IMG/VR virus record: IMGVR_UViG_2784746786_000001 | Span: 9,339-73,338 of that record | Direction: 5' to 3' (one strand) | Source of the DNA: a virus | Length of the DNA: 64,000 nucleotides | Shown: positions 1-41,055 of the stretch, one piece after another | Layout of the letters: each line of letters opens with the position of its first letter | Position numbering within the stretch: position 1 is the first letter of the stretch | Translations under genes and position numbers: made by a program | Notes under the pieces: model-generated | What the model was told of the DNA's origin: nothing | What the model saw: the letters and a program-made list of their open reading frames with translations, nothing else | Databases searched by the model: none

Positions 1-1
1 C

Positions 2-769
2 AGCAGTGTAGGTTTTTTGAAAGATAACGTCACCAGTATATTTTTCATTGCTTAGAATGCCAGCAATCGTGGAGCGTTGCCATCTTGGTCCGTGGCGAGG
101 TGTAGCGACACCGCGCTTGTTTAGATCATCTATAATGCTGATCACCTTTGTACCAGCCAGGTATTTTGTAAATATTTCTTTGACTATGGCGGCCTTATCG
201 GGAACAATTTGTAGATTGTCGCCATTCCAGCTATAACCATAGGGAGGAGAGCATAGCTTGTAGTTGCCATTTTTAAAACGGTGCTGAATAGACCAGTTGA
301 TGTTCTGTGCGGTTGAAGCGGATTCACCTTCAGCGACTGAGCTCATTACAGATAGCATGAGCTCGCTTTCCATAGTAGCGGTATTAAGCGCTTCCTTCTC
401 AAAATAGATTGGGATATCAAGTGACTGCAGCTTGCGGACGATTTCCAGGCAGTCCATGGTGTTTCGCGAAAGTCGGCTTAGTGATTTGGTGACGACCATA
501 TCTATTTGTCGGCTTTCACAGTCTGCCAGCAATCTTTGGAGAGCCGGTCGTTGATACATTTTTGTGCCACTGATGCCCTCATCAAAATATATGTCAGCTA
601 ATTTCCAATCTGGTCTAGAACTTATATAGTTTTCATAGTAGGCTTTTTGCGTTTCCAGGCTTTCTAGCTGCGCGTCACTGGCAGTGGATACGCGACAATA
701 TGCGGCCACACGCAGTTTTTTTCGTCTTATGCGCGGGCGTACAGACTTTATTTCAGTAATCTTTTTCAA
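2..769 (-). CDS. Large serine recombinase (integrase), N-terminal part; runs off the left edge
   Basis: My manual translation from TTG at 769 gives MKKITEIKSVRPRIRRKKLRVAAYCRVSTASDAQLESL (catalytic YCRVS), then KSLSRLSRN and NEKYTGDVIFQKTY (recombinase domain). Not in the ORF track because it is truncated by the window. Confidence 0.9.
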   Translation of the reverse strand, partial: MKKITEIKSVRPRIRRKKLRVAAYCRVSTASDAQLESLETQKAYYENYISSRPDWKLADIYFDEGISGTKMYQRPALQRLLADCESRQIDMVVTKSLSRLSRNTMDCLEIVRKLQSLDIPIYFEKEALNTATMESELMLSVMSSVAEGESASTAQNINWSIQHRFKNGNYKLCSPPYGYSWNGDNLQIVPDKAAIVKEIFTKYLAGTKVISIIDDLNKRGVATPRHGPRWQRSTIAGILSNEKYTGDVIFQKTYTA

Positions 770-817
770 AGAATCACTTCCTTCGGTAGTATCACATGTT
801 AACTCTAAATCGATAGA

Positions 818-1057
818 TTAGCCACTGATTTTTGGTAAAAGTTCAACTAAAAAAGGGGCAAAGGCTTGTCGATTCAGCTTAGTGACAGCGTTAAATTCCT
901 GTAGAGAAATGAGGTTTGCATTGTACATGCTTTGCAATAGTTGCTGGGCTTTATGATAGCCGCAGTCCTGCTGCAGTGCTATGGTGGTTGCTTTTTCCTT
1001 TGGCGTACTTGGCTGCCAGTTTCCTGCAACGGTTCTGATTTCCATAATATCCTCCAT
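818..1057 (-). CDS. SHOCT-like small protein preceding the serine recombinase (start may be 1048)
   Basis: 79 aa with C-terminal AQQLLQSMYNANLISLQEFNAVTKLNRQAF. Has a GGAGG RBS and sits directly upstream of the recombinase. Confidence 0.7.
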   Translation of the reverse strand: MEDIMEIRTVAGNWQPSTPKEKATTIALQQDCGYHKAQQLLQSMYNANLISLQEFNAVTKLNRQAFAPFLVELLPKISG

Positions 1058-1078
1058 CTTGATAATTCTATTTATAAT

Positions 1079-1107
1079 CCAATGGAGAAAAATATGTGAT
1101 TTTGACG
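1079..1107 (-). promoter_or_regulatory. Bipartite motif copy C (CGTCAAAA-N14-CCATTGG) upstream of SHOCT/recombinase
   Basis: Same two boxes and identical 14-nt spacing as the copies at 1212-1240 and 5553-5581. Confidence 0.65.
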
Positions 1108-1127
1108 AGGTCGGCCAAAATATTTTT

Positions 1128-1162
1128 ATAGCTTCCGTAATTGCGGAGGCTATATTTTTTTT
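1128..1162 (+). terminator. Intrinsic terminator-like hairpin between the divergent motif copies
   Basis: ATAGCTTCCG/CGGAGGCTAT stem followed by T8. Confidence 0.6.
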
Positions 1163-1211
1163 GTTTCCTTATAATTACGAGGATGAGCTTTTGAAAAAAT
1201 TGAAGCTATTT

Positions 1212-1240
1212 CGTCAAAAGTCGAATTTCAAGACCAGTGG
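1212..1240 (+). promoter_or_regulatory. Bipartite motif copy A (CGTCAAAA-N14-CCAGTGG) upstream of the recombination/replication operon
   Basis: Seen directly; about 50 nt upstream of the ATG at 1290. Confidence 0.65.
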
Positions 1241-1289
1241 ATATTGTAAGGAGCACACAGGATAAATGCTCCGACAGGAGGTGACGCGA

Positions 1290-1481
1290 ATGCATAGATT
1301 ACACAGACAATCTGAGATTGCTGCAGTTTTATGTGCTATCAGTCTGGTATCGGCTCGAATGGTATATAGGCTGCAAGGCAGAGGTCAAAAAGTGAAAGGA
1401 GGAGACAAGAGTGAAGGATTTAGCAGAGGCTATCATCAAGCTGCGGGATGCCGCTACATTTATCAATCAGCTGGCCGATGA
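1290..1481 (+). CDS. Small hypothetical phage protein
   Basis: GGAGGTG RBS then ATG 1290 (MHRLHRQSEIAAVLCAISLVSARM); first gene of the operon. Confidence 0.45.
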   Translation: MHRLHRQSEIAAVLCAISLVSARMVYRLQGRGQKVKGGDKSEGFSRGYHQAAGCRYIYQSAGR

Positions 1482-1704
1482 GCTGGACACAGGAAAAACA
1501 GGTGATGATAGGGAAGCTCCAGTGAAACCAAAGGTGACATTGGAAGAGGTCAGAGGCGTTTTGGCAGAAAAAGCAGGTCTTGGTTTTACTGCTGAGGTGA
1601 AGGAGCTTTTAAAGAAGCATGGCGGCAAGCGATTGTCTGAAATCGCAGAGACTGACTATGCTGGACTAAAGACGGATGCGGAGGTGCTAGGAAATGGCAG
1701 CTAA
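1411..1704 (+). CDS. Conserved phage protein (family often mislabelled rRNA biogenesis rrp5)
   Basis: VTLEEVRGVLAEK...EVKELLKKHGGKRLSEI motif; AGGAGG RBS; coupled to the DUF2800 gene. Confidence 0.7.
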   Translation: MKDLAEAIIKLRDAATFINQLADELDTGKTGDDREAPVKPKVTLEEVRGVLAEKAGLGFTAEVKELLKKHGGKRLSEIAETDYAGLKTDAEVLGNGS

Positions 1705-2833
1705 AGGACATGCCTTATTATCAGCATCCTCGGCTGGCCGCTGGATGCACTGCCCGCCCTCGGTTAGATTGGGTGAGGGCTTTGCTGATAAGAATAGCAG
1801 CTATGCGGTCGAAGGTACTGAGGCACACGCTTTGTGCGAATATAAGCTACTGAAGGCCTTGAAGCGCAGAGCTGTAAATCCAACTCGTAAGCTGCAATTT
1901 TACAACGAAGAAATGGAAGTTTGCGCGGAAGGCTACCGGGATTTCGTCATGGAGCTTGTCGAGCAAGCTAAGGTGAGAGGCAGTGCTCCGGTAGTATTGG
2001 TTGAGCAGAGGGTAGATTTTTCCAGCTGGGTGAAGGAAGGCTTCGGTACAGCTGATGCACTGGTTATTACTGAAGGGATGCTCACCATTTGTGACTATAA
2101 GCATGGGCAGGGCATTATGGTGGAGGCAACGAATAATGAACAGCTGAAATGCTATGCGTTGGGGGCGCTCTATATGTTTGATGCACTCTATGACATAGAT
2201 AAGGTACAGCTGGTGATCTATCAGCCTAGACGAGAAAATGTCAGTGTTTTTGAGTTGGCGGCAAAGAATTTATACGAGTGGGCTACTGAGTGCTTAGCAC
2301 CGCAGGCGAAACTTGCCTTTGCTGGTGAGGGCGAGTTTTCTTGTGGAGTCTGGTGCAGGTTTTGTAAGGCAAAGCATATCTGTAGAGCTCGTGCAGAGAA
2401 CAATCTTTTGCTTGCAAAGCATGATTTTCAGCTGCCGCCGACCTTGGATGATGTAGAAATAGAATTGATTCTATCAATGGTAGATGATTTATCTGTCTGG
2501 GCAAGCGACATCAAGGAATATGCACTTAGACAGGCTATTGCCGGGAAGGAATGGCAGGGCTGGAAGATCGTAGAGGGACGCTCAAATCGTCGCTATATGA
2601 ATGAAGCTGCGGTAACTGAGGTTGTCAGCAAGGCTGGGTTTGAGCCATACGAAAAGAAGCTTCTGGGCATCACTGCCATGCAGAAGCTTTTGGGTAAGAC
2701 TCGATTTGAAGAGTTGCTGGCAGCTTACATCGAAAAGCCACCTGGTAAACCAACATTAGTACCGAGCAGCGATAAACGCCCGGCAATGCATAATGCAAAA
2801 ACTGAATTTATGGAGGAAAAAGATCATGAGTAA
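1694..2833 (+). CDS. DUF2800 family PD-(D/E)XK (Cas4-like) exonuclease
   Basis: HALLSASSAGRWMHCPPS, EQRVDFS..GFGTADA, DYKHGQG and CRFCKAKHICRAR motifs. Confidence 0.85.
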   Translation: MAAKGHALLSASSAGRWMHCPPSVRLGEGFADKNSSYAVEGTEAHALCEYKLLKALKRRAVNPTRKLQFYNEEMEVCAEGYRDFVMELVEQAKVRGSAPVVLVEQRVDFSSWVKEGFGTADALVITEGMLTICDYKHGQGIMVEATNNEQLKCYALGALYMFDALYDIDKVQLVIYQPRRENVSVFELAAKNLYEWATECLAPQAKLAFAGEGEFSCGVWCRFCKAKHICRARAENNLLLAKHDFQLPPTLDDVEIELILSMVDDLSVWASDIKEYALRQAIAGKEWQGWKIVEGRSNRRYMNEAAVTEVVSKAGFEPYEKKLLGITAMQKLLGKTRFEELLAAYIEKPPGKPTLVPSSDKRPAMHNAKTEFMEEKDHE

Positions 2834-3398
2834 AAATGTAAAAGCTATGAATCCACTGAAGGTAATCACTGGCCCGGAGACTCGTTGGAGCTACGCAAAC
2901 GTATGGGAGCCCAAATCCATCAATGGAGGTACGCCAAAGTACAGCGTCAGCCTTATCGTACCGAAATCGGATACGAAAACTGTAGCCAAGCTAAAGGCAG
3001 CTATCGAGGCCGCTTATAAGGAGGGTGAGGCCAAGCTCAAGGGAAATGGCCGCAGCGTGCCAGCACTTTCTGTAATAAAGACGCCACTTCGTGATGGAGA
3101 CGTAGAGCGCCCGGATGATGCAGCCTATGCCAATGCCTACTTTGTTAATGCCAATGCCACTACGGCACCTGGAATTGTGGATACCGATTGCAATCCTATC
3201 CTGACCCGTTCAGAGGTTTATTCTGGAGTATATGGTCGAGCCAGCATCAGCTTCTACGCCTTCAATAGCTCTGGCAACAAAGGTATTGCCTGCGGTCTTA
3301 ATAACCTGCAGAAAATCAAGGATGGCGAGCCTCTTGGTGGTCGCAGCCGTGCAGAAGATGACTTTGCAACTGACGACGATGATGATTTCTTGAGCTGA
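2826..3398 (+). CDS. DUF2815 family single-stranded DNA-binding protein
   Basis: RWSYANVWEPK, PLRDGD, YSGVYGRASISFYAF and GLNNLQKIKDGEPLGG motifs, with an acidic tail (DDDDDFLS). Confidence 0.85.
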   Translation: MSKNVKAMNPLKVITGPETRWSYANVWEPKSINGGTPKYSVSLIVPKSDTKTVAKLKAAIEAAYKEGEAKLKGNGRSVPALSVIKTPLRDGDVERPDDAAYANAYFVNANATTAPGIVDTDCNPILTRSEVYSGVYGRASISFYAFNSSGNKGIACGLNNLQKIKDGEPLGGRSRAEDDFATDDDDDFLS

Positions 3399-3413
3399 TA
3401 GGAAGGATAGCGC

Positions 3414-3560
3414 ATGGGTATGGAAATTTATGAATTTGCAAAGCAGTTTGATGTTATAGTGGTCTTCATGTTATTTTCGATGATGATTGGATATTATGTG
3501 AAAGGCTTTACTGATCGGCTTGTCGATTGCTTGTTCGATAGATGGCAAAATAGAAAATAA
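3414..3560 (+). CDS. Small membrane protein (48 aa)
   Basis: Manual ORF MGMEIYEFAKQFDVIVVFMLFSMMIGYYVKGFTDRLVDCLFDRWQNRK with a GGAAGG RBS and one hydrophobic segment. Confidence 0.55.
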   Translation: MGMEIYEFAKQFDVIVVFMLFSMMIGYYVKGFTDRLVDCLFDRWQNRK

Positions 3561-3616
3561 AGGATACGAAGCGGTGGGGGATGTCCTCCATCGCTTCGTT
3601 TGTAAAGGAGTAAATT

Positions 3617-5545
3617 ATGAAGACATTAAGTATCGATATCGAGACTTTTTCCTCTGTGAATTTGGCAAAGTCTGGCGTATATCATTATGCAGAATCGCCT
3701 GATTTTGAAATACTGCTCTTTGGCTATTCAGTAGATGGCGGTGAAGTGAAGGTCGTAGATATGGTGGCAGGCGAGATGATACCTGTCGAGGTAGTGGGGG
3801 CATTGATGGACGATACCGTCATCAAGTGGGCATTCAATGCGTCATTCGAGAGGACGTGCCTGGCTAGATGGTTGGATGAATATATTTCCCCAGATTCCTG
3901 GCGCTGTACGATGATTTGGGCAGCTACACTTGGTCTGCCATTATCCTTGGAGGGCGTAGGAACTGTGCTAGGGTTGGAAAAGCAGAAGCTGACCGAGGGC
4001 AAGAGCCTCATTCGTTACTTTTGTGTGCCGTGTGCTGCGACCAAGGCCAATGGCGGCAGGACGAGAAATCTTCCAGAACACGATAAGGCAAAATGGGAAC
4101 TGTTTAAGTCATATAATCTGCGGGATGTTGAAACAGAAATGGCCATACAGGAAAAGCTGTCGAGGTTTCCAGTTCCTGATGCAATTTGGGAGGAGTACCA
4201 TCTAGATCAGGAAATCAATGATCGCGGCATTGGCATAGATATGACATTGGTAAAGCAGGCTATTGCCATGGATGAACGCTCGAAGGCTAGACTCATCGAG
4301 TTGATGCAGGAGCGGACGAACCTAGTTAATCCAAACTCGGTGCAGCAGATGAAAGCGTGGCTGGCAAATAACGGTTTGGAGACGGATAACCTTGGGAAGA
4401 AGGCTGTGGCAGAGCTTTTAAAGGAGGCGCCGGAGCCACTAGCTGAGGTGTTGGAGCTACGGCAGCAGCTTGCCAAGTCCAGCGTCAAGAAGTACACAGC
4501 CATGGGAAACGCAGTCTGCTCAGATAGCCGGGTAAAGGGAATGTTTCAGTTCTACGGTGCCAATCGGACAGGCCGCTTCAGTGGACGGCTTGTTCAGCTG
4601 CAAAACTTACCTCAAAACCACATGAGTGATTTGGCAGAGGCAAGGTCGCTGGTTCGCTCTGGCAATTATGAGGCAATGTCAATGCTATATGGTTCGATTC
4701 CGGATGCCTTGTCCGAGCTTATCCGCACATCCTTTGTGCCGCAGGACGGGCGAAAGTTTATCGTAGCTGACTTTTCTGCTATTGAGGCTCGTGTCATTGC
4801 CTGGCTTGCTGGCGAAGTCTGGCGGCTCGAGGTATTTAAAAGCGGTGGAGATATATACTGTGCCTCGGCATCACAGATGTTTAAGGTGAAGGTTGTGAAA
4901 AACGGAGAAAATGGGCATCTTCGCCAGAAAGGTAAAATATCGGAATTAGCGCTTGGGTATGGTGGCTCTGTTGGCGCATTAAAGGCAATGGGGGCGCTAG
5001 ACATGGGGCTGGAGGAAGATGAGCTACAAGGTCTCGTCAATGCCTGGCGTAATGCCAATCCGCACATCGTTCGATTGTGGTGGGATGTTGATCATGCTGT
5101 AAGGGTTTGTGTGGTAGAGCACCGTCAATCTATTTTGTATGGATTGCATTTTAGCTATGAGAGTGGTTTCCTTTTCATTACGCTGCCAAGTGGTCGGCGG
5201 CTTGCTTATGTCAAGCCAAAGATGGGCGTGAACAAGTTTGGCGGAGAGTCGGTCACCTATGAAGGTGTTGGGGCAACGAAGAAATGGGAACGGTTAGAAA
5301 GCTATGGCCCGAAGTTTGTGGAGAATATTGTCCAGGGCATTGCCAGGGATATTCTCCTGTATGCCATGAAGACATTACGGAATTGCTCTATCGTAGCGCA
5401 CATCCATGATGAGCTCATCATAGAAGCAGACAGACGAATGTCACTATCAGCCATATGTGAGCAGATGGGACGTACACCGCCGTGGGCAGAGGGATTGCTC
5501 CTTCGAGCTGATGGCTACGAATGTGATTTTTATAAAAAAGATTAA
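3617..5545 (+). CDS. polA: Phage family A DNA polymerase with 3'-5' exonuclease domain
   Basis: Exo I motif SIDIETFS, motif A ADFSAIEAR, motif B RQKGKISELALGYG, motif C HIHDE. Confidence 0.95.
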   Translation: MKTLSIDIETFSSVNLAKSGVYHYAESPDFEILLFGYSVDGGEVKVVDMVAGEMIPVEVVGALMDDTVIKWAFNASFERTCLARWLDEYISPDSWRCTMIWAATLGLPLSLEGVGTVLGLEKQKLTEGKSLIRYFCVPCAATKANGGRTRNLPEHDKAKWELFKSYNLRDVETEMAIQEKLSRFPVPDAIWEEYHLDQEINDRGIGIDMTLVKQAIAMDERSKARLIELMQERTNLVNPNSVQQMKAWLANNGLETDNLGKKAVAELLKEAPEPLAEVLELRQQLAKSSVKKYTAMGNAVCSDSRVKGMFQFYGANRTGRFSGRLVQLQNLPQNHMSDLAEARSLVRSGNYEAMSMLYGSIPDALSELIRTSFVPQDGRKFIVADFSAIEARVIAWLAGEVWRLEVFKSGGDIYCASASQMFKVKVVKNGENGHLRQKGKISELALGYGGSVGALKAMGALDMGLEEDELQGLVNAWRNANPHIVRLWWDVDHAVRVCVVEHRQSILYGLHFSYESGFLFITLPSGRRLAYVKPKMGVNKFGGESVTYEGVGATKKWERLESYGPKFVENIVQGIARDILLYAMKTLRNCSIVAHIHDELIIEADRRMSLSAICEQMGRTPPWAEGLLLRADGYECDFYKKD

Positions 5546-5552
5546 ATTGTTT

Positions 5553-5581
5553 CGTCAAAATCTGAAAAACATCTCCAGTGG
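5553..5581 (+). promoter_or_regulatory. Bipartite motif copy B (CGTCAAAA-N14-CCAGTGG) upstream of the primase operon
   Basis: Seen directly; lies just after the polA stop codon. Confidence 0.65.
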
Positions 5582-5611
5582 TTTATATAGAGAGGTGGTA
5601 GATTGCATAGG

Positions 5612-5640
5612 CGTTCATCTCAGAGATGGACGCTTTTTCT
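5612..5640 (+). terminator. Hairpin plus T-tract in the leader of the primase operon
   Basis: GCGTTCATCT-CAG-AGATGGACGC followed by TTTTTCT. Confidence 0.5.
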
Positions 5641-5675
5641 TGCCACAAATTATTCCGACAGAGGAGGTCGAGTCT

Positions 5676-5879
5676 ATGTTTTATGTTAAGGAAAAGCTCG
5701 GTGAAACTACGGAGGTAGCAGTAAAAATAACTGCTGAGAATGTGTTTTGCAAGTGCCCGCGTTGCCAGGCCGAGGTGCCAGTAGACCTCATGGAGTTTAT
5801 GGGGGACAAGGATTTTGGACTGTATGACTCAGCTGTTTACTGTGATAACTGTGTTGAGCTTTTGAAACGGGGGGTATGA
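5676..5879 (+). CDS. Small zinc-ribbon-like protein
   Basis: GAGGAGG RBS; CPRC...CDNC. Confidence 0.65.
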   Translation: MFYVKEKLGETTEVAVKITAENVFCKCPRCQAEVPVDLMEFMGDKDFGLYDSAVYCDNCVELLKRGV

Positions 5880-5880
5880 A

Positions 5881-6300
5881 ATGGACAGAGAGTATGTAAA
5901 TGCCGAGGGCTACCCTGATCCAACTTGCTATGCGGCACTAAATAAACTGCAACGAGAAGATAAAGCTATTTTCCGGCCTTTGGTATATATCTGCAGCCCA
6001 TATAGGGGGGATGAGCGAGAGAATACATTAAGGGCGCAGTACTATTGTCGGTTTGCTGTCAGTAAGGGATATATCCCCATAGCACCACATATCTACTTCA
6101 CGCAGTTTCTAGCTGATCAAAAAGAGTCAGAGCGTAGTGTAGCTATTTTTATGAATTTGGTGCTTTTAGGAAAATGCCATGAGCTGTGGTGCTTTGGTGA
6201 GAAGGTATCCGATGGTATGCAAGTAGAACTGGATAAGGCCAAACATCTAAGGAAAATACTGCGGTATTTTACGGAAGATTTGGAGGAGATATCGATATGA
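5881..6300 (+). CDS. DUF4406-like nucleotide-binding-fold protein
   Basis: VYICSPYRG, PIAPHIYFTQF and CHELWCFG...SDGMQVE motifs. Confidence 0.65.
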   Translation: MDREYVNAEGYPDPTCYAALNKLQREDKAIFRPLVYICSPYRGDERENTLRAQYYCRFAVSKGYIPIAPHIYFTQFLADQKESERSVAIFMNLVLLGKCHELWCFGEKVSDGMQVELDKAKHLRKILRYFTEDLEEISI

Positions 6301-8564
6301 GATTTACATTGTACCGAGCAAATTGTCGGGGTGAAGAACTAAATTCACTATATCCGACCAAGGAAGAAATCACAGATGAAGCAGCACTAGCGCATGCAGT
6401 GCAATATGATCATGTAATGGCATTATATAAAGGAAATCACCGTAGTAGTGCAAATTTCGAGCTTACGGACTGCATACCAGATGATTGTGATAATGACCAC
6501 TCAGACAGTCCGGAGGAGTGGATCACTGCTGAAAAGCTGGAACGCTATTTTCAGGATGTATCCTATGCTTTGGTTTATAGTCGCAGCCACAATAAGCAAA
6601 AAGGGGACAGAGCTCCAAGACCACGCTTCCATGTATATTTCCCTATTGAGGAACTATGCAAGGCAGATAGTTATGCAAGAGAGAAACAGCGTATTCTGTC
6701 CTATTTTCCTTACTTTGACAAAAATGCGCAGGATACAGCACGGTTTCTATACGGAACGGATAATCCACAGCTTTTGTGGCATGAGGGAAGCAAAACAGTC
6801 CTTGAATTTTTAACAGAACAGGATTTTAAGCGCTGGGAGGCTGACATTGAAAAGATTCCTGAAGGGCAACGAAATGCTACAATGTCAAAATTTGCTGGGC
6901 GCATCATAAAACGCTATGGTGATACCTCTGATGCTTGCAATATCTTTATGGAACGTGCCGGGAAATGTGAGCCGCCATTGGATGACCGTGAGCTGGCACG
7001 TATCTGGCAGAGTGCCCAGAGCTTTTATCAACGGATAGCAACTGAGCCTGGGTATGTTGCACCGGAGAATTACGAAAGTGGTTTTATGATAATGCCAGCA
7101 GATAAATCCGATGTTGGGCAGGCAGTCGTGCTCGCTAGAGAATATAGCTGGTGCCTTAGATATTCTCCGTCAACGGATTTTATTGTCTATAACGGCAGCT
7201 ATTGGGAGGAAAGCAAGCCTAAAGCACAGGGATTGTCTCAGGAGCTGACGGATAGACAGCTGGCTGAGGCAGAAGCAGAGATGGAAAAGGTGCGGGCAAT
7301 TCTAGAAGGCCAGGGCGTTGTTGATGTGATAAGGATAAATGCTAATCGTTGCTCAAAGGCAGATAGCGAGCGATTGGCTGTGCTTACAGAGGAACAACGG
7401 GCTTTATATTTACAGTATAAAAGAGCGGAAGCCTATCGGAATTATGCCATTAAACGGCGTGAGTCCAAATATATCGGTAACGCACTGAAGGAAAGCCGCC
7501 CAATGCTTGAAATTACACAGCGAGAGCTGGACAGCAATGAATATCTGTTGAACACGCCATCTTTTACTTATGATTTGAGACAAGGGGTGGCTGGTGTGAT
7601 GGAACATAGTGCAGAGCACTTTATCACGAAGCAAACACTGGTCGATGCGGATGAAGTTCGACGTGAGCTTTGGATGGATGCCCTGAATACTTTTTTCCTG
7701 ACTGATACGGAGCTTATTGGATATGTTCAACGAATTGTGGGGCTGGCAGCTATTGGCAAGGTGTTCATGGAGACATTGGTTATTGCTTATGGGGAAGGAC
7801 GTAACGGAAAATCTACCTTTTGGAATGTGCTGGCCAGAGTTTTAGGAAGCTATAGTGGAACGATGTCAGCGGAGACTTTAACCATTGGCTGTAGGAGAAA
7901 TGTTCGGCCGGAGCTGGCTGAGGCCAAGGGAAAACGTCTACTCATAGCAGCTGAGCTGGAAGAAGGAATGCGTCTAAGTACCGCCAATGTGAAGCAACTT
8001 TGTTCAACAGATGAGATTTCAGCTGAGAAAAAGTACAAGGATCCGTTTAGCTACACACCTAGTCATACATTGGTGCTCTATACCAATCATCTTCCTAAAG
8101 TGGGGGCGATGGACCAGGGAACGTGGCGCAGACTGATTGTTATCCCTTTTGATGCCAGAATTGAAGGAAGTTCAGATATTAAGAATTATACAGATTATCT
8201 ATTTGAGAACGCGGGGGGCGCAATCTTAAGCTGGATAATCGAGGGAGCGAGAAAGGTCATCGCAGAAGATTGCAAAATAACAGCGCCCCAAAGAGTGCAG
8301 AGAGCCATTAATGAATATCGAGAAATCAACAACTGGATGGAGCATTTTCTGGAGGAATGCTGTGAAGTAGGCCCGCTATTTGAGGCAAAATCTGGTGAGG
8401 TGTATGACAATTATCGAGCTTTCTGTGTTCGAACCGGTGAGTACGTCAGAAATAGTGCGGATTTTTACGGGGCGATAGAAGCTTCTGGCTTTGATCGCTA
8501 TAGAAGCAGCAAAGGCAAGTATATCAAGGGGTTACAGCTGAAATCAGAATTCTTGATAAATTAA
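6297..8564 (+). CDS. P4-family primase/SF3 helicase
   Basis: RPRFHVYFP, PriCT-like GQRNATM, D5_N region, Walker A GEGRNGKST, and TNHLPK. Confidence 0.92.
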   Translation: MRFTLYRANCRGEELNSLYPTKEEITDEAALAHAVQYDHVMALYKGNHRSSANFELTDCIPDDCDNDHSDSPEEWITAEKLERYFQDVSYALVYSRSHNKQKGDRAPRPRFHVYFPIEELCKADSYAREKQRILSYFPYFDKNAQDTARFLYGTDNPQLLWHEGSKTVLEFLTEQDFKRWEADIEKIPEGQRNATMSKFAGRIIKRYGDTSDACNIFMERAGKCEPPLDDRELARIWQSAQSFYQRIATEPGYVAPENYESGFMIMPADKSDVGQAVVLAREYSWCLRYSPSTDFIVYNGSYWEESKPKAQGLSQELTDRQLAEAEAEMEKVRAILEGQGVVDVIRINANRCSKADSERLAVLTEEQRALYLQYKRAEAYRNYAIKRRESKYIGNALKESRPMLEITQRELDSNEYLLNTPSFTYDLRQGVAGVMEHSAEHFITKQTLVDADEVRRELWMDALNTFFLTDTELIGYVQRIVGLAAIGKVFMETLVIAYGEGRNGKSTFWNVLARVLGSYSGTMSAETLTIGCRRNVRPELAEAKGKRLLIAAELEEGMRLSTANVKQLCSTDEISAEKKYKDPFSYTPSHTLVLYTNHLPKVGAMDQGTWRRLIVIPFDARIEGSSDIKNYTDYLFENAGGAILSWIIEGARKVIAEDCKITAPQRVQRAINEYREINNWMEHFLEECCEVGPLFEAKSGEVYDNYRAFCVRTGEYVRNSADFYGAIEASGFDRYRSSKGKYIKGLQLKSEFLIN

Positions 8565-8567
8565 ATA

Positions 8568-8666
8568 GTGCCACCTCATGCCACCTCTATATAGAAAGTC
8601 CTCTATAGGGACAAAAAATTTTAACTATATAGAGAGATTATAGGTAGGGCCGGCATGAGGTGGCAC
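8568..8666. repeat. 15-bp perfect inverted repeat flanking an AT-rich core; candidate replication origin
   Basis: GTGCCACCTCATGCC (8568-8582) and GGCATGAGGTGGCAC (8652-8666), directly after the primase gene. Confidence 0.6.
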
Positions 8667-8689
8667 AGCTTAGAACAATGGAGGCACTT

Positions 8690-8971
8690 ATGCGAGAAAC
8701 ACTGATAGAGCAAAAGCTGGTTAAAGACACTAAAGCGGCAGGAGGGATAGCACTGAAGTTTACGTCTCCTGGATTTGATGGGATGCCAGACCGTGTCCTC
8801 TTGTTTCCAGATGGCAGGCTGTGCTTTGTCGAGGTAAAAGCACCTGGGAAAAAGCCTAGGCCTTTGCAGCTTGCAAGACATAAGCTATTGCGGCGGCTTG
8901 GCTTTAAGGTCTATGTGCTGGATGCCGCAGAGCAGATTGGAGGGATACTGGATGATATTCAAGCCACATGA
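8690..8971 (+). CDS. VRR-NUC domain nuclease
   Basis: GMPDRVLL...FVEVKAPGKKPRPLQ. Confidence 0.9.
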   Translation: MRETLIEQKLVKDTKAAGGIALKFTSPGFDGMPDRVLLFPDGRLCFVEVKAPGKKPRPLQLARHKLLRRLGFKVYVLDAAEQIGGILDDIQAT

Positions 8972-10304
8972 TTACCAGAAATATGCAATACGATACATCG
9001 AGGAGCATGAGGTCACAGCGCTTCTTCTGGACATGGGCCTCGGCAAGACGATTATCACGCTGACAGCCATTAATGACCTCATCAATGACAGCTTTGAAGT
9101 CAGGAAAGTGCTTATTATTGCACCACTTAGAGTGGCTAGAGACACGTGGCCTGCAGAAATCAAGAAATGGGAGCACCTTAGGCACCTGACTGCAGCCGTT
9201 GTTGTCGGCAGCTTGGCAGAGCGCAAAGCTGCGCTGTCCAAGAAGGCAGACCTATACATCATCAACCGGGAGAACGTCCAGTGGCTCATTGAGAAAAGCG
9301 GCTGTCGTTTTGACTTCGATATGGTGGTCATTGATGAGCTTTCGTCCTTCAAGAATCATCAGGCTAAGCGATTCAAGTCCTTGATGAAAAAGCGTCCTGG
9401 AATAAAGCGCATCGTTGGACTTACTGGCACACCAAGCTCCAATGGCTTGATGGATTTGTGGGCTGAGTTTCGCCTGTTGGATATGGGAGAGCGCCTGGGA
9501 AGATTCATCAGCCAGTATCGGAGCAACTACTTCAGGCCAGATAAGATGAACGGACAGGTCGTGTTTTCCTACAAGCTGCTGCCGGGAGCAGAGAAGCAGC
9601 TTTATGAGCGGATAGCAGACATCACCATCTCCATGAAATGCACGGATCATCTGGTGATGCCGGAGCTCATCAGCACAGAATGCCAAGTACAGCTCTCGGA
9701 TACAGAGCGCAAGCGATACGACGAGTTGAAGAAAGACCTCGTGCTGCAGCTACCGGATGGAGAGATTACCGCTGCCAATGCCGCAGCACTTACAGGAAAG
9801 CTGGTACAGATGGCCAACGGAGCAGTTTACAGCGATGATGGTAGCACGATGGAAATTCATGACCGCAAGCTTGATGCCTTGGAGGACTTGATTGAAGCCG
9901 CCAACGGCAAGCCTGTTCTTGTAGCGTATTGGTTCAAGCATGACCTAGAGCGCATCAAAGCAAGGTTCGATGTGCGAGAGATAAAAAGCACCGCTGACAT
10001 AGCCGACTGGAATGCGGAGAAGATTCCGGTGGCATTGATCCATCCGGCATCCGCTGGACATGGACTCAACCTGCAGGCTGGCGGCAGTACGCTTATCTGG
10101 TTTGGACTTACTTGGTCACTGGAGCTTTATCAGCAGACGAATGCCAGACTGTGGCGGCAGGGACAGACAGCAGAGACCGTGGTCATACAGCACATCGTGG
10201 CTAAGGATACCGTTGATGAACATATCATGAAAGCCCTGGCTAAGAAGAATACAACACAACGTGCTTTGATGGATGCCGTCGAAGCAGAATTGGAGGATAT
10301 ATGA
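8952..10304 (+). CDS. SNF2-family DEAD/DEAH-like helicase
   Basis: DMGLGKT, DELS, LTGTP, GHGLNLQ and QTNARLWRQGQ motifs. Confidence 0.92.
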   Translation: MIFKPHDYQKYAIRYIEEHEVTALLLDMGLGKTIITLTAINDLINDSFEVRKVLIIAPLRVARDTWPAEIKKWEHLRHLTAAVVVGSLAERKAALSKKADLYIINRENVQWLIEKSGCRFDFDMVVIDELSSFKNHQAKRFKSLMKKRPGIKRIVGLTGTPSSNGLMDLWAEFRLLDMGERLGRFISQYRSNYFRPDKMNGQVVFSYKLLPGAEKQLYERIADITISMKCTDHLVMPELISTECQVQLSDTERKRYDELKKDLVLQLPDGEITAANAAALTGKLVQMANGAVYSDDGSTMEIHDRKLDALEDLIEAANGKPVLVAYWFKHDLERIKARFDVREIKSTADIADWNAEKIPVALIHPASAGHGLNLQAGGSTLIWFGLTWSLELYQQTNARLWRQGQTAETVVIQHIVAKDTVDEHIMKALAKKNTTQRALMDAVEAELEDI

Positions 10305-10492
10305 ATGAGTATGAACAGCTTGCCAATGCCATCGTCTTGCAGGCGGTGAAGGACTACCGACAGGCAAGGAAAAAGAAAGATTCAGCAGAGCTGATTCCGC
10401 TGGTAACATTCTTTCGGTCGAAGTGGTTTGCCGTGCTGACCAATGTGGATGGTCGGCTCTTGGAGCAGAGACTCAAGGAGGAATGTCGATGA
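10301..10492 (+). CDS. Conserved small phage protein
   Basis: YEQLANAIVLQAVKDYR motif; GGAGG RBS; coupled to both neighbours. Confidence 0.7.
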   Translation: MNEYEQLANAIVLQAVKDYRQARKKKDSAELIPLVTFFRSKWFAVLTNVDGRLLEQRLKEECR

Positions 10493-10929
10493 ACGCTAAG
10501 GAATATCTGAGCCAAGCATACCTTGTGGATCATCGCATTGATAGTAAGCTAGAGCAGCTGTCGGAACTCAAAGACCTGTCTGAGAAGGCTACCGCTACCA
10601 TTTCTGATATGCCAGGAAGTGCCACCAGAAATGTGCATCGGTTAGAAGATGTCATAGCTAATATGATTGACCTCCAGAATGAAATCAACGATGACATAGA
10701 TGGTTTGGTGAATCTGAAGCGAGAAATCATGCAGCAGATAAAGACCGTGCCTAGCCCGGAGTACCAGCTGATTCTGGAACGCAGGTACATGTCCTATAAA
10801 CCATGGGAGCAGATAGCTGTGGAGATTGGTTACAGCCTGCATTACCTGTACAAGATGCACAGTGCAGCGCTCCAATCCTTCGATGAGGTCAGGAAAAAAA
10901 CGCAGATTTTGAAATTGGATACTAAATGA
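10489..10929 (+). CDS. DUF1492/ArpU/RinA-like late transcription activator
   Basis: MNAKEYLSQAY; C-terminal sigma-4-like HTH (LERRY..KPWEQIAVEIGYS); located just before HNH/TerS. Confidence 0.75.
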   Translation: MNAKEYLSQAYLVDHRIDSKLEQLSELKDLSEKATATISDMPGSATRNVHRLEDVIANMIDLQNEINDDIDGLVNLKREIMQQIKTVPSPEYQLILERRYMSYKPWEQIAVEIGYSLHYLYKMHSAALQSFDEVRKKTQILKLDTK

Positions 10930-11046
10930 TAGAGATTGATACCTGCCAAGTATGATATAGTTAGAGTAGCAAAAATATAAAACATCGAGCCTTCATAGGA
11001 GCAATCCTTTGAGGGCTTTTCTTATGCCCGGAAAGAGGTGGTCAGC

Positions 11047-11439
11047 GTGCCGAAGAGACCAAAGAAACCCTGTGCGTATCCTGGCTGCCCAAGACTGACG
11101 GATGAACGCTACTGCGAGGAACATAAAAAGCTCGCTGTCAAACAATACGATAAGTACGGTCGTAGCCCTGAAGTCAAGAAAAGATATGGCTGGCAGTGGC
11201 AGAAGGTCAGGCGTGCATTCCTCGCCAAGCATCCGCTCTGCGAGATGTGCGAGAAGGAGCATCGGCTGACGAAAGCTACCGAGGTTCATCACATCCTGCC
11301 GCTGTCTGCTGGCGGGACAAGTGACGAGGACAACCTCATGCCGCTGTGCAAAGTCTGCCATTCCAGGATCACAGCAAAGACTGGCGGCAGATGGTCAAGG
11401 GGAGGGGGAGGTAAAATCTCCCAAAGCCCGCGAAGCTAG
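11047..11439 (+). CDS. Terminase-associated HNH endonuclease
   Basis: CAYPGC..YCEEH, HPLCEMC, VHHILP..GG...NLMPLCKVCH. Confidence 0.9.
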   Translation: MPKRPKKPCAYPGCPRLTDERYCEEHKKLAVKQYDKYGRSPEVKKRYGWQWQKVRRAFLAKHPLCEMCEKEHRLTKATEVHHILPLSAGGTSDEDNLMPLCKVCHSRITAKTGGRWSRGGGGKISQSPRS

Positions 11440-11480
11440 ACCGGACATAGGGTCACGCGCACAAAAATTGGGAATCAAAC
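11395..11480. other. Probable cos packaging region
   Basis: G-rich tract and GGTCACGCGCACAAAAA between HNH and terS, the usual position in HK97-like cos phages. Cut site not determined. Confidence 0.4.
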
Positions 11481-11509
11481 GGGGGATTAACCCCATTGGA
11501 GGTGATGGC

Positions 11510-12073
11510 ATGGCGAAAGACGGTACGAATCGCGGCGGCAGGCGCGCACGGTCTGGCGTGAAATCTGGTGCGCTGGCAGACAAGATAGCTGCCGGGAAGG
11601 CAGCAACCGTGCTTGACCTTCCCGTTGTCGAACTGCAGGGTACAGACCTTGGAGAAGCCGCTGACCTGCAAGGGGAGGATATGCCGAATCCCAGTGACTA
11701 TCTGTCAGCCAGGCAGCGTGATGGCAGCCCGCTCGGCGCAGATGAAATCTTCAGGGAAATATGGCAGTGGCTGAAAGAGCGCGGCTGTGAGAGACTGGTA
11801 AATCCACGTCTGTTGGAAAGCTATGCGCAGGCCTTTGCTCGTTTTATCCAGTGTGAAGATGCCATCAGCACCTATGGCCTGCTGGGGAAGCATCCGACAA
11901 CCGGCGGTGTGATCACCAGCCCGTTTGTGCAGATGAGCCAAAGTTTTCAAAAGCAGGCGAATATGCTGTGGTATGAGATTTTTGATATCGTCAAGCAGAA
12001 CTGCACGGCATCATTTACGGACAATCCGCAGGATGACATGATGGAACGGCTGCTTCGTGGGCGCAGAAAATAA
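11510..12073 (+). CDS. terS: Terminase small subunit (P27 family)
   Basis: MAKDGTNRGGRR; LESYAQAFARFIQCE; GFLGKHPTT-like LLGKHPTTG. Confidence 0.85.
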   Translation: MAKDGTNRGGRRARSGVKSGALADKIAAGKAATVLDLPVVELQGTDLGEAADLQGEDMPNPSDYLSARQRDGSPLGADEIFREIWQWLKERGCERLVNPRLLESYAQAFARFIQCEDAISTYGLLGKHPTTGGVITSPFVQMSQSFQKQANMLWYEIFDIVKQNCTASFTDNPQDDMMERLLRGRRK

Positions 12074-13389: not shown

Positions 13390-13938
13390 ATGCGTGTATT
13401 TTTGAACCCGGGGCATGATCGGGAACGCGACAGCGGGGCTGTCAATCCTGTCAGCGGACTTCGGGAGTGTGATGTCGCGGCTGGCATTGGTGAACTGGTG
13501 AAAGGGTATCTGGAAACAGCTGGCTGTGAGGTGCAGCTGCTCCAAAGCGACAATCTTGCGGGAGAAACACCGGAACTGCCCTGCGTGGTGGATACAGCGA
13601 ATGGCTGGCCGGCCGATGTTTTTGTTTCGCTTCACTGCAATGCCGCTAGTGGCAGCGCGCAAGGGACAGAAACGCTGATCTATGCGGATGGCGGTGAATC
13701 AGCGCAGCTTGCGGACTGCATCCAGTCGCAGATTATTGCCAGCCTTGGCACTATCGACCGTGGTCTCAAGGAACGTCCGGATCTGATTGTCCTGAACAGC
13801 ACGGACATGCCAGCGGTCTTGGTGGAAATGGCGTTTGTGGATAATGAGGAAGATGCGCAGCTCCTGACAGACAGGGCTGACGAATTTGCCCGGGCAATCG
13901 CTCGCGGCATCACAGATTTTGAAGGGGGAAATGAATGA
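13390..13938 (+). CDS. N-acetylmuramoyl-L-alanine amidase (Amidase_3), copy 1
   Basis: NPGH, ECD, SLHCN and LVEMAF zinc/catalytic motifs. Confidence 0.88.
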   Translation: MRVFLNPGHDRERDSGAVNPVSGLRECDVAAGIGELVKGYLETAGCEVQLLQSDNLAGETPELPCVVDTANGWPADVFVSLHCNAASGSAQGTETLIYADGGESAQLADCIQSQIIASLGTIDRGLKERPDLIVLNSTDMPAVLVEMAFVDNEEDAQLLTDRADEFARAIARGITDFEGGNE

Positions 13939-15562: not shown

Positions 15563-15571
15563 ATGAGGAAC

Positions 15572-16471
15572 ATGAAAACACAGACATTCGGTATTGAGAT
15601 GGAACTCACGGGGATTACGCGCACGGAGGCAGTGAAAACCATTGCCGCTTATTTCGGCACCCACTGCACTTACATCGGCGGGGCTTATTACGCTCATGAA
15701 GCCACGGATCGCCAAGGCCGGAGATGGCAGGCCATGCGGGATTCCAGTATCCGGGCGCAGAAAAAATCCTTTGATGGGCAGAAAGTCAGCGCCGGAGATG
15801 ATTACAAAACTGAGGTGGTCAGCCCAATCCTTCATTACGAGGATATTGAAGATGTGCAGGAACTGGTGCGGCAGCTCAGAAAGAAAGGGGCTTTTGCCAA
15901 CAGTTCCTGCGGCATTCATATCCATATCGGCGCGGAACGCTTCACGCCGCAGACCTTGCGGAACATCGTGAACATTATCGCCAGCAAAGAGGACATCCTT
16001 TACCGAGCCTTGAAAGTTGACGGCAATCGGCTGGGTTACTGCAAAAAGACGAATGCGGATCTTCTGCGAATCATCAACCAGCAGAAACCGAGAACCATGG
16101 CGAAACTGGCCGACATCTGGTATCGCGAGGATCCCTGCGGACGCAATCAGCATTACAACAGCACCCGCTATCATGGGCTGAACCTGCATGCGACTTTCAC
16201 CAAGGGGACAGTCGAGTTTCGGCTTTTCAACGGCACAACCCATGCCGGCGAGATAAAAGCCTACATCCAATTTTGCCTGGCAGTTACGCATCAGGCCCTC
16301 AGCCAAAAGAAGGCAACCTGCCGCAAGACGGTGACGGATAACGAAAAGTACGCTTTCCGGTGCTGGATGCTGCGGCTGGGGCTTATCGGAGAAGAATTCA
16401 AGACCTGCCGATTTCATTTCCTTAAATATCTGACCGGAAACAGCGCATGGCGAAGCGGACGGGCTGCTTGA
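15572..16471 (+). CDS. Amidoligase-2 family enzyme
   Basis: FGIEMELTG, EVVSPIL, SCGIHIHIG, RYHGLNL and TVEFRLFNGT motifs. Confidence 0.88.
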   Translation: MKTQTFGIEMELTGITRTEAVKTIAAYFGTHCTYIGGAYYAHEATDRQGRRWQAMRDSSIRAQKKSFDGQKVSAGDDYKTEVVSPILHYEDIEDVQELVRQLRKKGAFANSSCGIHIHIGAERFTPQTLRNIVNIIASKEDILYRALKVDGNRLGYCKKTNADLLRIINQQKPRTMAKLADIWYREDPCGRNQHYNSTRYHGLNLHATFTKGTVEFRLFNGTTHAGEIKAYIQFCLAVTHQALSQKKATCRKTVTDNEKYAFRCWMLRLGLIGEEFKTCRFHFLKYLTGNSAWRSGRAA

Positions 16472-16559
16472 AAGACATAGCCACAGGCACACCAAGAGAG
16501 CGGGACAGCCGCTCTTGCGGTGGTAGAAGGACAAACCTTCGGGAAAGGATGCGATTGCA

Positions 16560-17015
16560 ATGAAGAGAAAAATTTATGTGGCCTATGGGAGCAACATGGA
16601 CTTGGCGCAGATGGCGTACCGCTGCCCACAGGCCAAGCTTTTAGGAAAGGGTTTGATGAAGGATTGGCAGCTGCTTTTCAAAGGCTCACAGACGGGATCG
16701 TACGCGACTATCGAGCAAGCCGGAAATCATGAGGTGCCAGTGCTGCTGTGGGAAATCTCCAGGTCAGATGAGGCAAGGCTGAACGTCTACGAAGGATATC
16801 CAAAGTTCTATTACAAGAAAACTGTGCAGGTCAAGACGGAAAATGGCCTAGTGACTGGCATGGTCTATATCATGCACGAGGAGCGAGAGACAGGCATCCC
16901 TTCGGCAGAATATTATGATGTGCTGGAACAGGCATATAAGGAATTTGGTTTCGACTTGAAAATTTTACAGGAAGCCTGTCGGGTAAGCCATGATAAGAGT
17001 CGGCAGAATATGTAA
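16560..17015 (+). CDS. Gamma-glutamylcyclotransferase family protein
   Basis: YVAYGSNM; LNVYEGYPKFY. Confidence 0.88.
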   Translation: MKRKIYVAYGSNMDLAQMAYRCPQAKLLGKGLMKDWQLLFKGSQTGSYATIEQAGNHEVPVLLWEISRSDEARLNVYEGYPKFYYKKTVQVKTENGLVTGMVYIMHEERETGIPSAEYYDVLEQAYKEFGFDLKILQEACRVSHDKSRQNM

Positions 17016-37207: not shown

Positions 37208-37645
37208 ATGGTTTTATGGACAACTACAGAACTGAAGACAGGAACCCTATTCGGGCTACTGTGGGGGCTGCTGAATCTAATGCTGGGAGGCATTGATGCA
37301 CCGATACTTGCACTGAGCGGCCTGATCATGCTCGATTTCCTGACGGGCATTACAGCCGCCTATAAAAATGCAGAACTCAATTCCCGTACAGGAGCTGCCG
37401 GTCTTATGCGTAAGGCCGGTATCTTTGTCTGCATTATTATCGCCTATCTTCTGGACACTGCTACGGGGTTGATGATGTTTCGGGGAATGGTGATTACAGG
37501 CTTTGCCATCATTGAGGTCATGAGCCTGGTCGAGAACTTCGACCGCATGGGCTATGGCGAGATTATTCCCGTGTTTTTGCGGATACATCTGCAAAAGATT
37601 GCCGCTGAGAAGAACTTAAAAGTAAAGGAGTCTGATGACAAATGA
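37208..37645 (+). CDS. Holin (phage holin 4_1-like)
   Basis: Hydrophobic segments; LDFLTGI..A..S..G..G..RK...D; EVMSLVEN..RMG. Confidence 0.85.
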   Translation: MVLWTTTELKTGTLFGLLWGLLNLMLGGIDAPILALSGLIMLDFLTGITAAYKNAELNSRTGAAGLMRKAGIFVCIIIAYLLDTATGLMMFRGMVITGFAIIEVMSLVENFDRMGYGEIIPVFLRIHLQKIAAEKNLKVKESDDK

Positions 37646-38181
37646 AGATTTTTATCAATCCAGGGCATGCGCCAAACGGTCAGCCGGATCCAGGTGCCTG
37701 CAATAAATATACTGGGCTGCAGGAAAGTGAGGTGGCATTCTGTGTAGGTGAGAAGACAGCAGATTATCTTAATGCTGTCGGCATCGAGACGGAAAGTTTG
37801 CAGTCGGATAGTTTGGCGGAGGTATGTATTGCGGCAAATGCCAGCGGAGCAGATTTTTTTATTTCCGTCCATTGCAATAGCGCCAACACAACTTCCGCCA
37901 ATGGCACAGAAACCTGGGCATGCGCAGGCTCGGCTGAGGGAAGGAAGCTTGCCCAGTGCATCAATGACCAGATTGTTGACGCTCTTGGCACCACTGACCG
38001 CGGGGTGAAGATTGCCGCGCCAGGAATCAACGGCTTGTATGTTCTCAGCAATACAGATATGCCGGCGGTGCTCGTAGAGCTTGCTTTCATCTCGAATGCT
38101 GAGGATGTGGTGCTTCTTACCGAGCAGCAGGATGAGTTTGCCCGAGCCATTGCCCGTGGTGTGACGGATTATTTCAATTGA
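37642..38181 (+). CDS. Endolysin, N-acetylmuramoyl-L-alanine amidase, copy 2
   Basis: NPGH, ESE, SVHCN and LVELAF motifs; coupled to the holin. Confidence 0.9.
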   Translation: MKIFINPGHAPNGQPDPGACNKYTGLQESEVAFCVGEKTADYLNAVGIETESLQSDSLAEVCIAANASGADFFISVHCNSANTTSANGTETWACAGSAEGRKLAQCINDQIVDALGTTDRGVKIAAPGINGLYVLSNTDMPAVLVELAFISNAEDVVLLTEQQDEFARAIARGVTDYFN

Positions 38182-38684: not shown

Positions 38685-39080
38685 GGAATTGCTGATAAAT
38701 CAACAGTTTCCAATCATTGATTTATCCACAAGTCGATTTTTGAAATTAACTTGCATTAAATTCATTAATCGATGCTTTGGGCACATCCATTCTCCGGCCT
38801 TTCTGATTTAGGGAGGTATTTCCCTAAATCTAGACAAACCTATCCAAGGACTGCACCAAATTCTTTCTGTCGTCCAGCCCTTATGCACAGTACCAGATTT
38901 GCTGAAGCAAACAACAGTTGAAACATCTGGTAGTTCTTTTTCAATCCACGGTATTTTGTTTTCCTGCATTTGAAAAAATTCTTTATGATGTGGAATGGAT
39001 GCTCTACTTTACAACGTATGGAAGATTTTTCATGCTCAATCAGTTTATCCCAGTTCATCCCTTCATAAATTTCTGTCAAG
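38685..39080 (-). mobile_element. IS5-family remnant (3' transposase fragment and right end)
   Basis: SSIRCKVEHPFHIIKNFFKCRKTKYRGLKKN; end sequence TTTATCAGCAATTCC next to TTAA. Confidence 0.75.
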
Positions 39081-39412
39081 TGATTCTGGGACGGACGCTT
39101 GGCAACGCGAAAATCTACGCAGTATGATCCGAAAATTCTTGGCAAAAATGGTATAGTCGACCCATTGTCGCTTGCTATAGCGTTGCAGGATTCAGCAGAT
39201 GAGAGAGTAGAGCAGGTAATCGACGAGATGTTGACGAAGGTTTTTGGGGGAAAAAATTAAGATGGTAGGTGGATTTACCAGATTTAAATAGTGGTTCAAG
39301 GGTTTTGAAGAAGAATGAGATTATTGATATGAAACAGCTCGGTTTGCGTGGGATGACAAAAGACGATGCGCTGCTAATATACAAAAAGTTGTACACACCT
39401 AGTATCGGATAG
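39081..39412 (+). pseudogene. Remnants of a probable type IV TA-like pair (regulator C-terminus plus internally deleted nucleotidyltransferase-like gene)
   Basis: YDPKILGKNGIVDPLSLAIALQDSADERVEQVIDEML*, then MVGGFTRFK*WFKGFEE joined out of frame to IDMKQLGLRGMTKDDAL. Family recognised from memory only. Confidence 0.4.
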
Positions 39413-40002: not shown

Positions 40003-40206
40003 TAGATTGTCTCCTTCCGGCTTTTAAGCCGAAGCGGAGACAACCTGCATTGCTGCCAGATATATTGTTCATACGTTGGTCACCTCATACGGATTGCTCC
40101 GCCTCAAATTGGTGACCAGCCGTTCGTTAAGCTGGCACTGTATATTCAATTTCTTCCATCCATCAGCTACGAACACACTACCCGGCCGGGATAATAGTGA
40201 GCTGAT
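40003..40206 (-). ncRNA. Candidate structured cis-regulatory leader of the sigma-like gene
   Basis: Several nested stems, including a GCAA tetraloop hairpin and a stem (TTGTCTCC/GGAGACAA) that sequesters the RBS. Confidence 0.5.
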
Positions 40207-40430
40207 TTCAGGAAAAGTAGTTTTATGCCTTGCTTAGGGCGGAATAATTTTTGTTTAGATAAGTCTTACCTGTTAGTACATTTAGATTGTAGTTCAAACA
40301 TTAGGCATAAGCTAACGAGTCTTGTGACTATATATATTCTTGAAGAAGTAGGCGCAAATACTGGTAAAATAAAAGCATTCGTAGTAGAATGTTGTTATGC
40401 ACATAAGCATATTTTATTCGAATTGAGAAT

Positions 40431-41051: not shown

Positions 41052-41055
41052 TATT

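Follow-up and report, generated by a model that had tools for sequence, protein, structure and literature searches.

What reads a short bipartite sequence that recurs, at one fixed spacing, ahead of three operons of the same prophage? The question is posed by the window studied here, a stretch of 64,000 nt from IMG/VR virus record IMGVR_UViG_2784746786_000001 (contig C14:9339-73338 of the 2,637,495-bp genome G000), where a first box, CGTCAAAA, and a second, CCAKTGG, stand 14 nt apart at the head of a replication operon on the plus strand (P1, 1212-1240), of a primase and helicase operon on the same strand (P2, 5553-5581) and of a recombinase operon on the minus strand (P3, 1079-1107). An original prediction, made from the letters of the window, took these sites for promoters read by a protein of the element itself that resembles region 4 of sigma-70 factors (39478-40002, minus strand), and saw in them a single switch coupling excision with replication. 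Our answer runs along the same lines: the three sites are probably private prophage promoters dependent on that 174-aa protein, a reading drawn from the comparison of sequences. They form a bipartite element that is directional, strict in its spacing, insulated by terminators and free of host consensus, and that heads three operons and co-varies with a sigma-derived phage protein.

An exact pattern scan of the window finds CGTCAAAA-N14-CCAKTGG at the three positions originally claimed, each time with precisely the 14-nt spacing claimed. Every copy is intergenic and aimed into the operon downstream of it. The three spacers are mutually unrelated, as had been predicted, and a simple sigma-70 consensus scan confirms that the boxes are unlike those of the host, a TTGACA/TATAAT-type promoter being absent at all three sites. 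The complete genome contains these same three copies and none besides, with no match to the reversed pattern that served as control, and 100 dinucleotide-preserving shuffles of the window give an expectation of 0. Relaxing the pattern adds little: the window holds no additional copy with one mismatch or fewer, its next-best match (two mismatches) lies antisense within an amidase gene, and a tolerance of up to three mismatches yields nothing convincing. In each of five further genomes three exact matches are present, all of them within a related prophage, the reversed control again giving 0. Chance is thus excluded by three exact copies in the window where none is expected, by the lack of any others in the genome and by the three in each of these five genomes. 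A further candidate, in which the reverse strand of box 1 (TTGACG) would serve as a sigma-A -35 element, was dropped, the consensus scan having given no such promoter and the copies being oriented with their operons.

Related prophages tie the motif to the sigma-like gene. Eighty loci were collected with the DUF2800 protein alone, independently of both motif and factor, and some 45 of these have, directly upstream of the DUF2800 operon, a homologue of the 39478-40002 protein at 25-45% identity (E = 6e-37 to the homologue in locus L012, for example). In these relatives the homologue ends 20-100 nt before the motif, usually with an intrinsic terminator between the two, 10-25 nt upstream of box 1, and what follows has a constant layout: an 8-mer ending AAA, exactly 14 nt, and a CCAGTGG-like 7-mer. 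The spacing is 14 nt in all 32 of the 32 instances compiled. The predicted co-occurrence with the gene is equally visible from the side of the motif, since a forward CCAKTGG stands within 1 kb upstream of DUF2800 in 18 of the 41 loci with the factor gene, against 1 of the 37 without it. That sole box-positive locus without the gene, L008, is a relative with the rearranged layout of the window, the two sharing P3 and P1 placed back to back, a terminator between them, and a factor gene position at the far end on the other strand. Of 401 genomes drawn from the phylum, only the window genome and G050 have more than one exact copy, and both possess the gene, which in G050 is full-length and stands 4.6 kb upstream of the first exact match; the motif is therefore not equally common in genomes that lack the gene. 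Single matches occur in 6 of the 401 genomes, to be compared with five single matches of the reversed control. None of those six single-match genomes has the factor family, two of them matching it only through an ordinary sigma region 4.

Both boxes differ in sequence from one phage lineage to the next, but the two or three promoters of a lineage have them in common. Boxes 1 and 2 read CGTCAAAC and CCAAGTG in L028, CGCCAGAA and CCATTAG in L035, TTCCGAAA and CCATTTG in L030, and TGTTCAAA and CCAGTGG in L026, with two copies in each case; three copies are present in L009/15/7, with CGCTCAAA and CCAGTGG, and in L039, with TACTCAAA and CCTGTGG. Within one phage, accordingly, box identity is 0.98 and spacer identity 0.50; between phages the values fall to 0.66-0.69 and 0.34. 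The second copy, after PolA, is kept in L008, L011-13, L016, L077, L026, L028, L030, L035, L058, L009/15/7 and L039, each with its own box variants. When the 5' half of box 1 is set beside the predicted recognition helix of region 4, CGTC or CGTA goes with RTT..SRL, CGGC with RNT.xY.R, CGCT with Q(R/K)TF.D.M, GGAC with RKAF..RR and TGTT with QSAVNYRK; this pairing, a by-eye reading among kin loci, is suggestive of a box that tracks the helix.

The claimed coupling of excision to replication gains from the third copy, which precedes SHOCT and serine recombinase genes in four other phage genomes as well. These genomes (G001-G004) are collinear, with P1 after the factor gene, P2 after PolA, and P3 32-37 kb downstream of P1, where it follows the lysis-gene terminator and precedes the SHOCT and serine recombinase genes. 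In three canonical P3 promoters of this kind, the Shine-Dalgarno sequence GGAGG begins 6 nt after box 2. A transcript that contains it has to start within those 6 nt, which puts box 2 at the -10 position. Downstream of box 2, a sigma-A -10 element is not conserved in the consensus of the 32 instances.

The putative reader of these boxes (39478-40002, PHROG 13787) is the only member of its own family in the genome. It has a four-cysteine N-terminus, an acidic linker with the motif SLD, and a C-terminal region 4 helix-turn-helix (HTH), and judged by profile comparison it is sigma-derived, without a recognisable region 2. In an alignment of 32 members, four cysteines (C50, C60, C64 and C67) are invariant within the N-terminal 75 residues, and are followed by an invariant S77 in the SLD-like motif, a near-invariant D79, an acidic stretch and then the C-terminal HTH. 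Comparison by hhalign with the sigma factors of the host and its relatives aligns columns 71-165, that is the linker and region 4, at a probability of 96.9% (E = 1.3e-10); in our own reading the linker of the family resembles SigA region 3.2. The AlphaFold model (predicted local distance difference test, pLDDT, 81) consists of a beta-hairpin, a long helix, a cysteine knuckle, the linker and a four-helix domain, and its residues 98-172 match region 4 of SigB, sigma-28, sigma-32, SigK, SigW, SigE and extracytoplasmic function (ECF) sigmas at Z 5-7 (VIA-align). A PDB profile search matched SigE, SigF and SigA at E about 1e-3. Pfam gives weak HTH matches only, NCBIfam sigma70-ECF matches are partial, every curated family score (Pfam included) falls under its cut-off, and a Foldseek search of the whole model against the PDB returns weak sigma rows only. 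One member, from L024, aligns with TIGR02937 from profile position 51, a weak hint. No match to DUF1492/ArpU was found for the protein with Pfam and family hidden Markov models. The family is nonetheless large, with 925 cluster representatives at E <= 1e-10, nearly all of them 160-180 aa long. PHROG 13787 is listed as 'unknown function' in PHROGs, tblastn finds the family in uncultured phage records only, where it is annotated 'hypothetical protein', and a search with the window protein alone found no close relative in the genome collection.

Several observations weigh against this protein as the reader of the three sites. Some lie in its N-terminal part, for which Sigma70_r2 is not detected in Pfam, profile comparison with sigma factors gives an alignment probability of 0.1%, and a fold search of the model reaches a best Z of 3.1; with no region 2 detectable, our reading does not account for how the -10 position would be read and melted. 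In the protein atlas this domain appears in 'hypothetical protein' clusters only. Furthermore, 38 kb and a transposase fragment separate the gene from P1, the two being on different strands, and it is from the relatives that we infer that it belongs to the same functional element as the promoters. Genome G005, which has the window-type layout, carries three motif copies, but its assembly lacks the factor gene; as the phage contig is cut at 15.4 kb, this genome was counted on neither side. A terminator-like hairpin about 25 nt after P2, before the first gene of its operon, is odd for a promoter. Lastly, the related loci are kin, and counts among them overstate their independence.

Two ways of working are conceivable if the sites are promoters of this kind. 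The protein may well act as a sigma that replaces that of the host, although we stop short of calling this probable: the absence of a sigma-A -10 element favours replacement, and the absence of region 2 calls for caution. More tentatively, it could be an activator that works with the polymerase in another way. The original prediction that the promoters are read by the element's sigma-like protein finds its support in comparison; as the protein has both linker and region 4 but no detectable region 2, 'sigma-derived factor' is perhaps the apter name for it.

Could another phage protein, such as the divergent Xre-type repressor or a small early protein, own these sites as its promoters or operators, the sigma-like gene being a mere syntenic neighbour? 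Some repressor has to act on the early operons, the window and several relatives do have an Xre-type HTH gene divergently beside the sigma-like one, and CCAGTGG and CCATTGG are 7-bp palindromes. Yet the genes upstream of the sigma-like gene vary among the relatives (Xre-type in five loci, excisionase-like HTH in eight, others elsewhere), whereas the motif layout is constant and follows the sigma-like gene. Small early proteins, for their part, are encoded downstream of P1 and are unable to fire it first. The palindrome is lost in many box 2 variants, CCAAGTG, CCATTAG and CCAGATG among them, and all copies are oriented with their operon, two features that speak for a directional promoter and against a dimer operator. 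The apparent tracking of box 1 by the recognition helix of the sigma-like protein points the same way, and we consider this alternative improbable.

A second alternative, that the phage exploits promoters of a host alternative sigma, would account for bipartite elements with -35/-10-like spacing and no sigma-A consensus, and it has a precedent in Staphylococcus aureus, where prophages have a host sigma-H-dependent promoter upstream of int and so place that gene under a host alternative sigma (PMC2869324). It is nevertheless very unlikely here: the host chromosome has no copy of the motif outside the prophage, its genome has a small repertoire of sigma-70-family genes, with only four matches at E <= 1e-15, and the boxes vary by phage lineage and not by host, CGTCAAAA...CCAGTGG being found also in hosts labelled Muricomes, Eubacterium and Oscillospiraceae. 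Least credible of all is the idea that the repeats are non-transcriptional sites (for recombination or inversion, for replication or packaging, or as remnants of module shuffling), for even though the window has its core inverted with respect to the recombinase and sigma-like arms and two copies face each other 104 bp apart beside serine recombinase genes, the position of the motif relative to upstream terminators and to downstream ribosome-binding sites and start codons is kept in every relative, the three operon heads are conserved in both direct and divergent layouts, and the boxes are conserved while the spacer drifts, as is typical of promoter elements read by a protein.

If the three sites are private promoters of the sigma-derived factor, the prophage would be switched on in a short series of steps. 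In the lysogen, a divergent Xre-type repressor would probably keep the factor off. The candidates for such CI-like repressors are two paralogous Xre-type HTH_3 genes (40431-41754, plus strand), divergent from the sigma-like gene; they resemble genes at the same position in L019, L030 and L035, being 32-36% identical in the HTH region to the divergent upstream Xre-type genes of L019, L030/31 and L035/36. A repeat search of 40000-40440, upstream of the factor gene, found nothing telling among operator-like repeats. Once made, the factor would read box 1 (CGTCAAAA) at the -35 position with its C-terminal region 4, box 2 (CCAKTGG) would be used at the -10 position by its linker and N-terminal four-cysteine domain in concert with core RNA polymerase, and transcription would begin within about 6 nt after box 2. 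P1 (DUF2800, single-stranded DNA-binding protein and PolA), P2 (primase, helicases and an ArpU-like activator) and P3 (SHOCT and serine recombinases) would then fire together. The DUF1492/ArpU-like gene (10423-10929, plus strand; PHROG 36, transcriptional regulator), which ends the P2 operon directly before HNH and TerS, is likely to be the late-gene activator and second step of the cascade, as the role of its superfamily suggests (PMC3753634), and would in turn switch on the late genes. Replication, recombination and the late cascade would in this way all hang on one factor. Were this so, one small protein and a 29-bp element would explain how prophages of this group switch on replication, recombination and, by way of the ArpU-like gene, late genes; induction would be directly testable through the expression of one gene, and early operon starts could be annotated in thousands of prophages.

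Promoters of ECF (group 4) sigmas, such as Bacillus subtilis SigW, have a -35 'AAC' and a -10 'CGT' about 16-17 nt apart. The present promoters are likewise bipartite and strictly spaced, with a -35 box that ends AAA(C), and the present factor, at ~170 aa, has a C-terminal region 4 homologous to that of ECF and group 3 sigmas. Here, however, the -10 box is CCAGTGG-like and not CGT, region 2 is not detected and its place is taken by a beta-hairpin, a long helix and a four-cysteine knuckle without known fold, no anti-sigma partner is seen, and family scores stay under the curated cut-offs. Phage-encoded sigma factors with private promoters are known from B. subtilis phage SPO1 (gp28, gp33/34). 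Like them, the factor described here would redirect the host polymerase to bipartite phage promoters of several operons in a temporal cascade; unlike them, it belongs to a temperate phage and would stand at the top of the cascade, with three promoters for replication and recombinase genes, the late genes being apparently left to a separate ArpU/DUF1492-type activator. In PBSX, an Xre repressor is paired with Xpf, a sigma-like positive control factor that acts on late packaging and lysis genes. The pairing of an Xre-type repressor with a small sigma-like activator in a prophage-like element of Bacillota recurs here as a likeness of arrangement, and the targets differ, being early replication and recombination operons. 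Phage T4 offers a precedent for a sigma that lacks one of the two canonical DNA-reading domains, its sigma function being reduced or split into minimal parts in gp55 and gp33: gp55 keeps a region 2-like part and has no region 4, whereas in the present factor it is region 4 that persists and region 2 that is missing or replaced. A further parallel is found in the RinA/ArpU/LtrC/DUF1492 proteins, a superfamily of late-gene activators of Gram-positive phages (PMC3753634) in which a small phage protein with a sigma region 4-like HTH likewise serves as a dedicated operon activator. Those stand before terS and act on packaging and lysis genes, whereas homologues of the 39478-40002 protein precede the early DUF2800 operon and form a separate family, PHROG 13787.

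The phage group is Ca. Heliusviridae-like. Phages of that type have nine signature genes and are reported, as a group, from >90% of human gut samples (PMC9226167); the comparison took in DUF2800, the Enc34-type single-stranded DNA-binding protein (PF10991), PolA, SNF2 and TerL, which are found here, from a set that also includes VRR-NUC, portal, Clp protease and capsid. In the literature on DUF2800, Heliusviridae and phage-encoded sigma factors we found no description of the factor or the motif, nor of the regulation of the group. A phage sigma with private promoters is of an already known kind; what sets this family apart is a region 4 and linker joined to a four-cysteine domain in the place of region 2, under the annotations 'hypothetical' and 'unknown function'. 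It is an attractive if rather doubtful extension that PHROG 13787, with its ~900 representatives, constitutes a new minimal class of sigma, in which a small zinc-binding domain replaces region 2 and reads a -10 element of the CCAGTGG type. Such a class would imply a code, specific to each lineage, that pairs the region 4 helix with box 1 and the cysteine domain with box 2, and it would supply natural, mutually orthogonal pairs of factor and promoter at the top of the lysis-lysogeny switch of very common gut phages. If the dependence on the factor holds, factor and promoter pairs would in any case be naturally diversified, and sigma function without a canonical region 2 would become a possibility.

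The operons themselves are compact. P1, an exact match whose position is kept in the relatives, heads genes at 1290-5545 (plus strand) for a 63-aa open reading frame, a 97-aa open reading frame (PHROG 408), the DUF2800 nuclease, the Enc34-type single-stranded DNA-binding protein and the family A DNA polymerase PolA. P2, likewise exact, begins 8 nt past the PolA stop codon and heads genes at 5676-10929 (plus strand) for a 67-aa open reading frame (PHROG 21057), DUF7768, a D5_N/DUF5906 primase-helicase, an SNF2 helicase and the DUF1492/ArpU-like protein. P3, an exact match in the form CGTCAAAA-N14-CCATTGG, heads the minus-strand operon at 2-1057, which consists of SHOCT_2 (818-1057, likely start 1045) and a large serine recombinase whose gene continues past the window edge; in the genome to the left, a 138-aa protein with a Recombinase domain and a second serine recombinase of 522 aa continue this side. 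Between the divergent P3 and P1 lies a terminator-like hairpin with a run of eight T (1127-1162, plus strand).

The leader of P1 (1244-1292, plus strand) contains a hairpin (GGAGC...GCUCC), TCCGACAG (1270-1277), the ribosome-binding site AGGAGG and the start codon ATG at 1290. The 5' arm of the hairpin is itself Shine-Dalgarno-like (AAGGAGC) and the complementary 3' arm (GCTCC) comes just before the real ribosome-binding site; in the relatives the stem varies, by our by-eye reading, on both arms (GGAGC/GCTCC, GGGGC/GCCCC, AAGGC/GCCTT), and the hairpin may act as a switch of translation or stabilise the 5' end of the mRNA. The leader of P2 (5586-5678, plus strand) has a 12-bp hairpin (5609-5635) followed by TTTTTCTT, and hence terminator-like, then TCCGACAG again (5654-5661), a ribosome-binding site and ATG at 5676. 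The hairpin scores z = -2.7 and has an equivalent, with T-run, in L008; with its own T-run (5609-5643) it may be a terminator for the PolA transcript, an attenuator of P2 or the two at once, and is a possible target of antitermination. The original prediction of a shared TCCGACAG holds for both positions, but its owners are the two plus-strand copies (1212 and 5553) and not the minus-strand copy. In both plus-strand leaders it is the stretch immediately 5' of the Shine-Dalgarno sequence.

For the rest, the gene content is that of an ordinary tailed prophage, with HNH, TerS, TerL, structural genes, holin and amidase reaching to ~38.6 kb. Two paralogous Amidase_3 genes are present, one in the packaging region (13390-13938) and one after the holin (37642-38181), and Amidoligase_2 and GGACT genes (15563-17015) sit amid the packaging genes as apparent cargo. 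The sigma-like gene comes after the lysis module, separated from it by a fragment of a DDE transposase (38840-39145, the last ~100 aa), and is divergent from the two Xre-type genes; the fragment marks the rearrangement at which the layout of the window leaves the canonical one. The Xre-type genes are translationally coupled to a type I hsdM (40431-43277 together), so that restriction-modification genes adjoin the sigma-like gene, as a type I hsdM/hsdS pair also does in L012 (329-3161); restriction-modification may be cargo of the lysogeny arm in these phages. An empty integration site was not found, both flanks matching same-genus genomes only as scattered pieces resembling insertion sequences, and a megablast search of 1-9000 against phage records gave one 345-bp match only. 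Four RNA-labelled runs compared with positions 1-12000 yielded scattered short contigs that carry neither start nor strand information. Positions 900-6300 of the window recur nearly in full (75-95% of the words sampled) in 13 metagenome runs, which come from at least nine studies of wastewater, bioreactors and freshwater, so the phage or its host appears to be common in these habitats.

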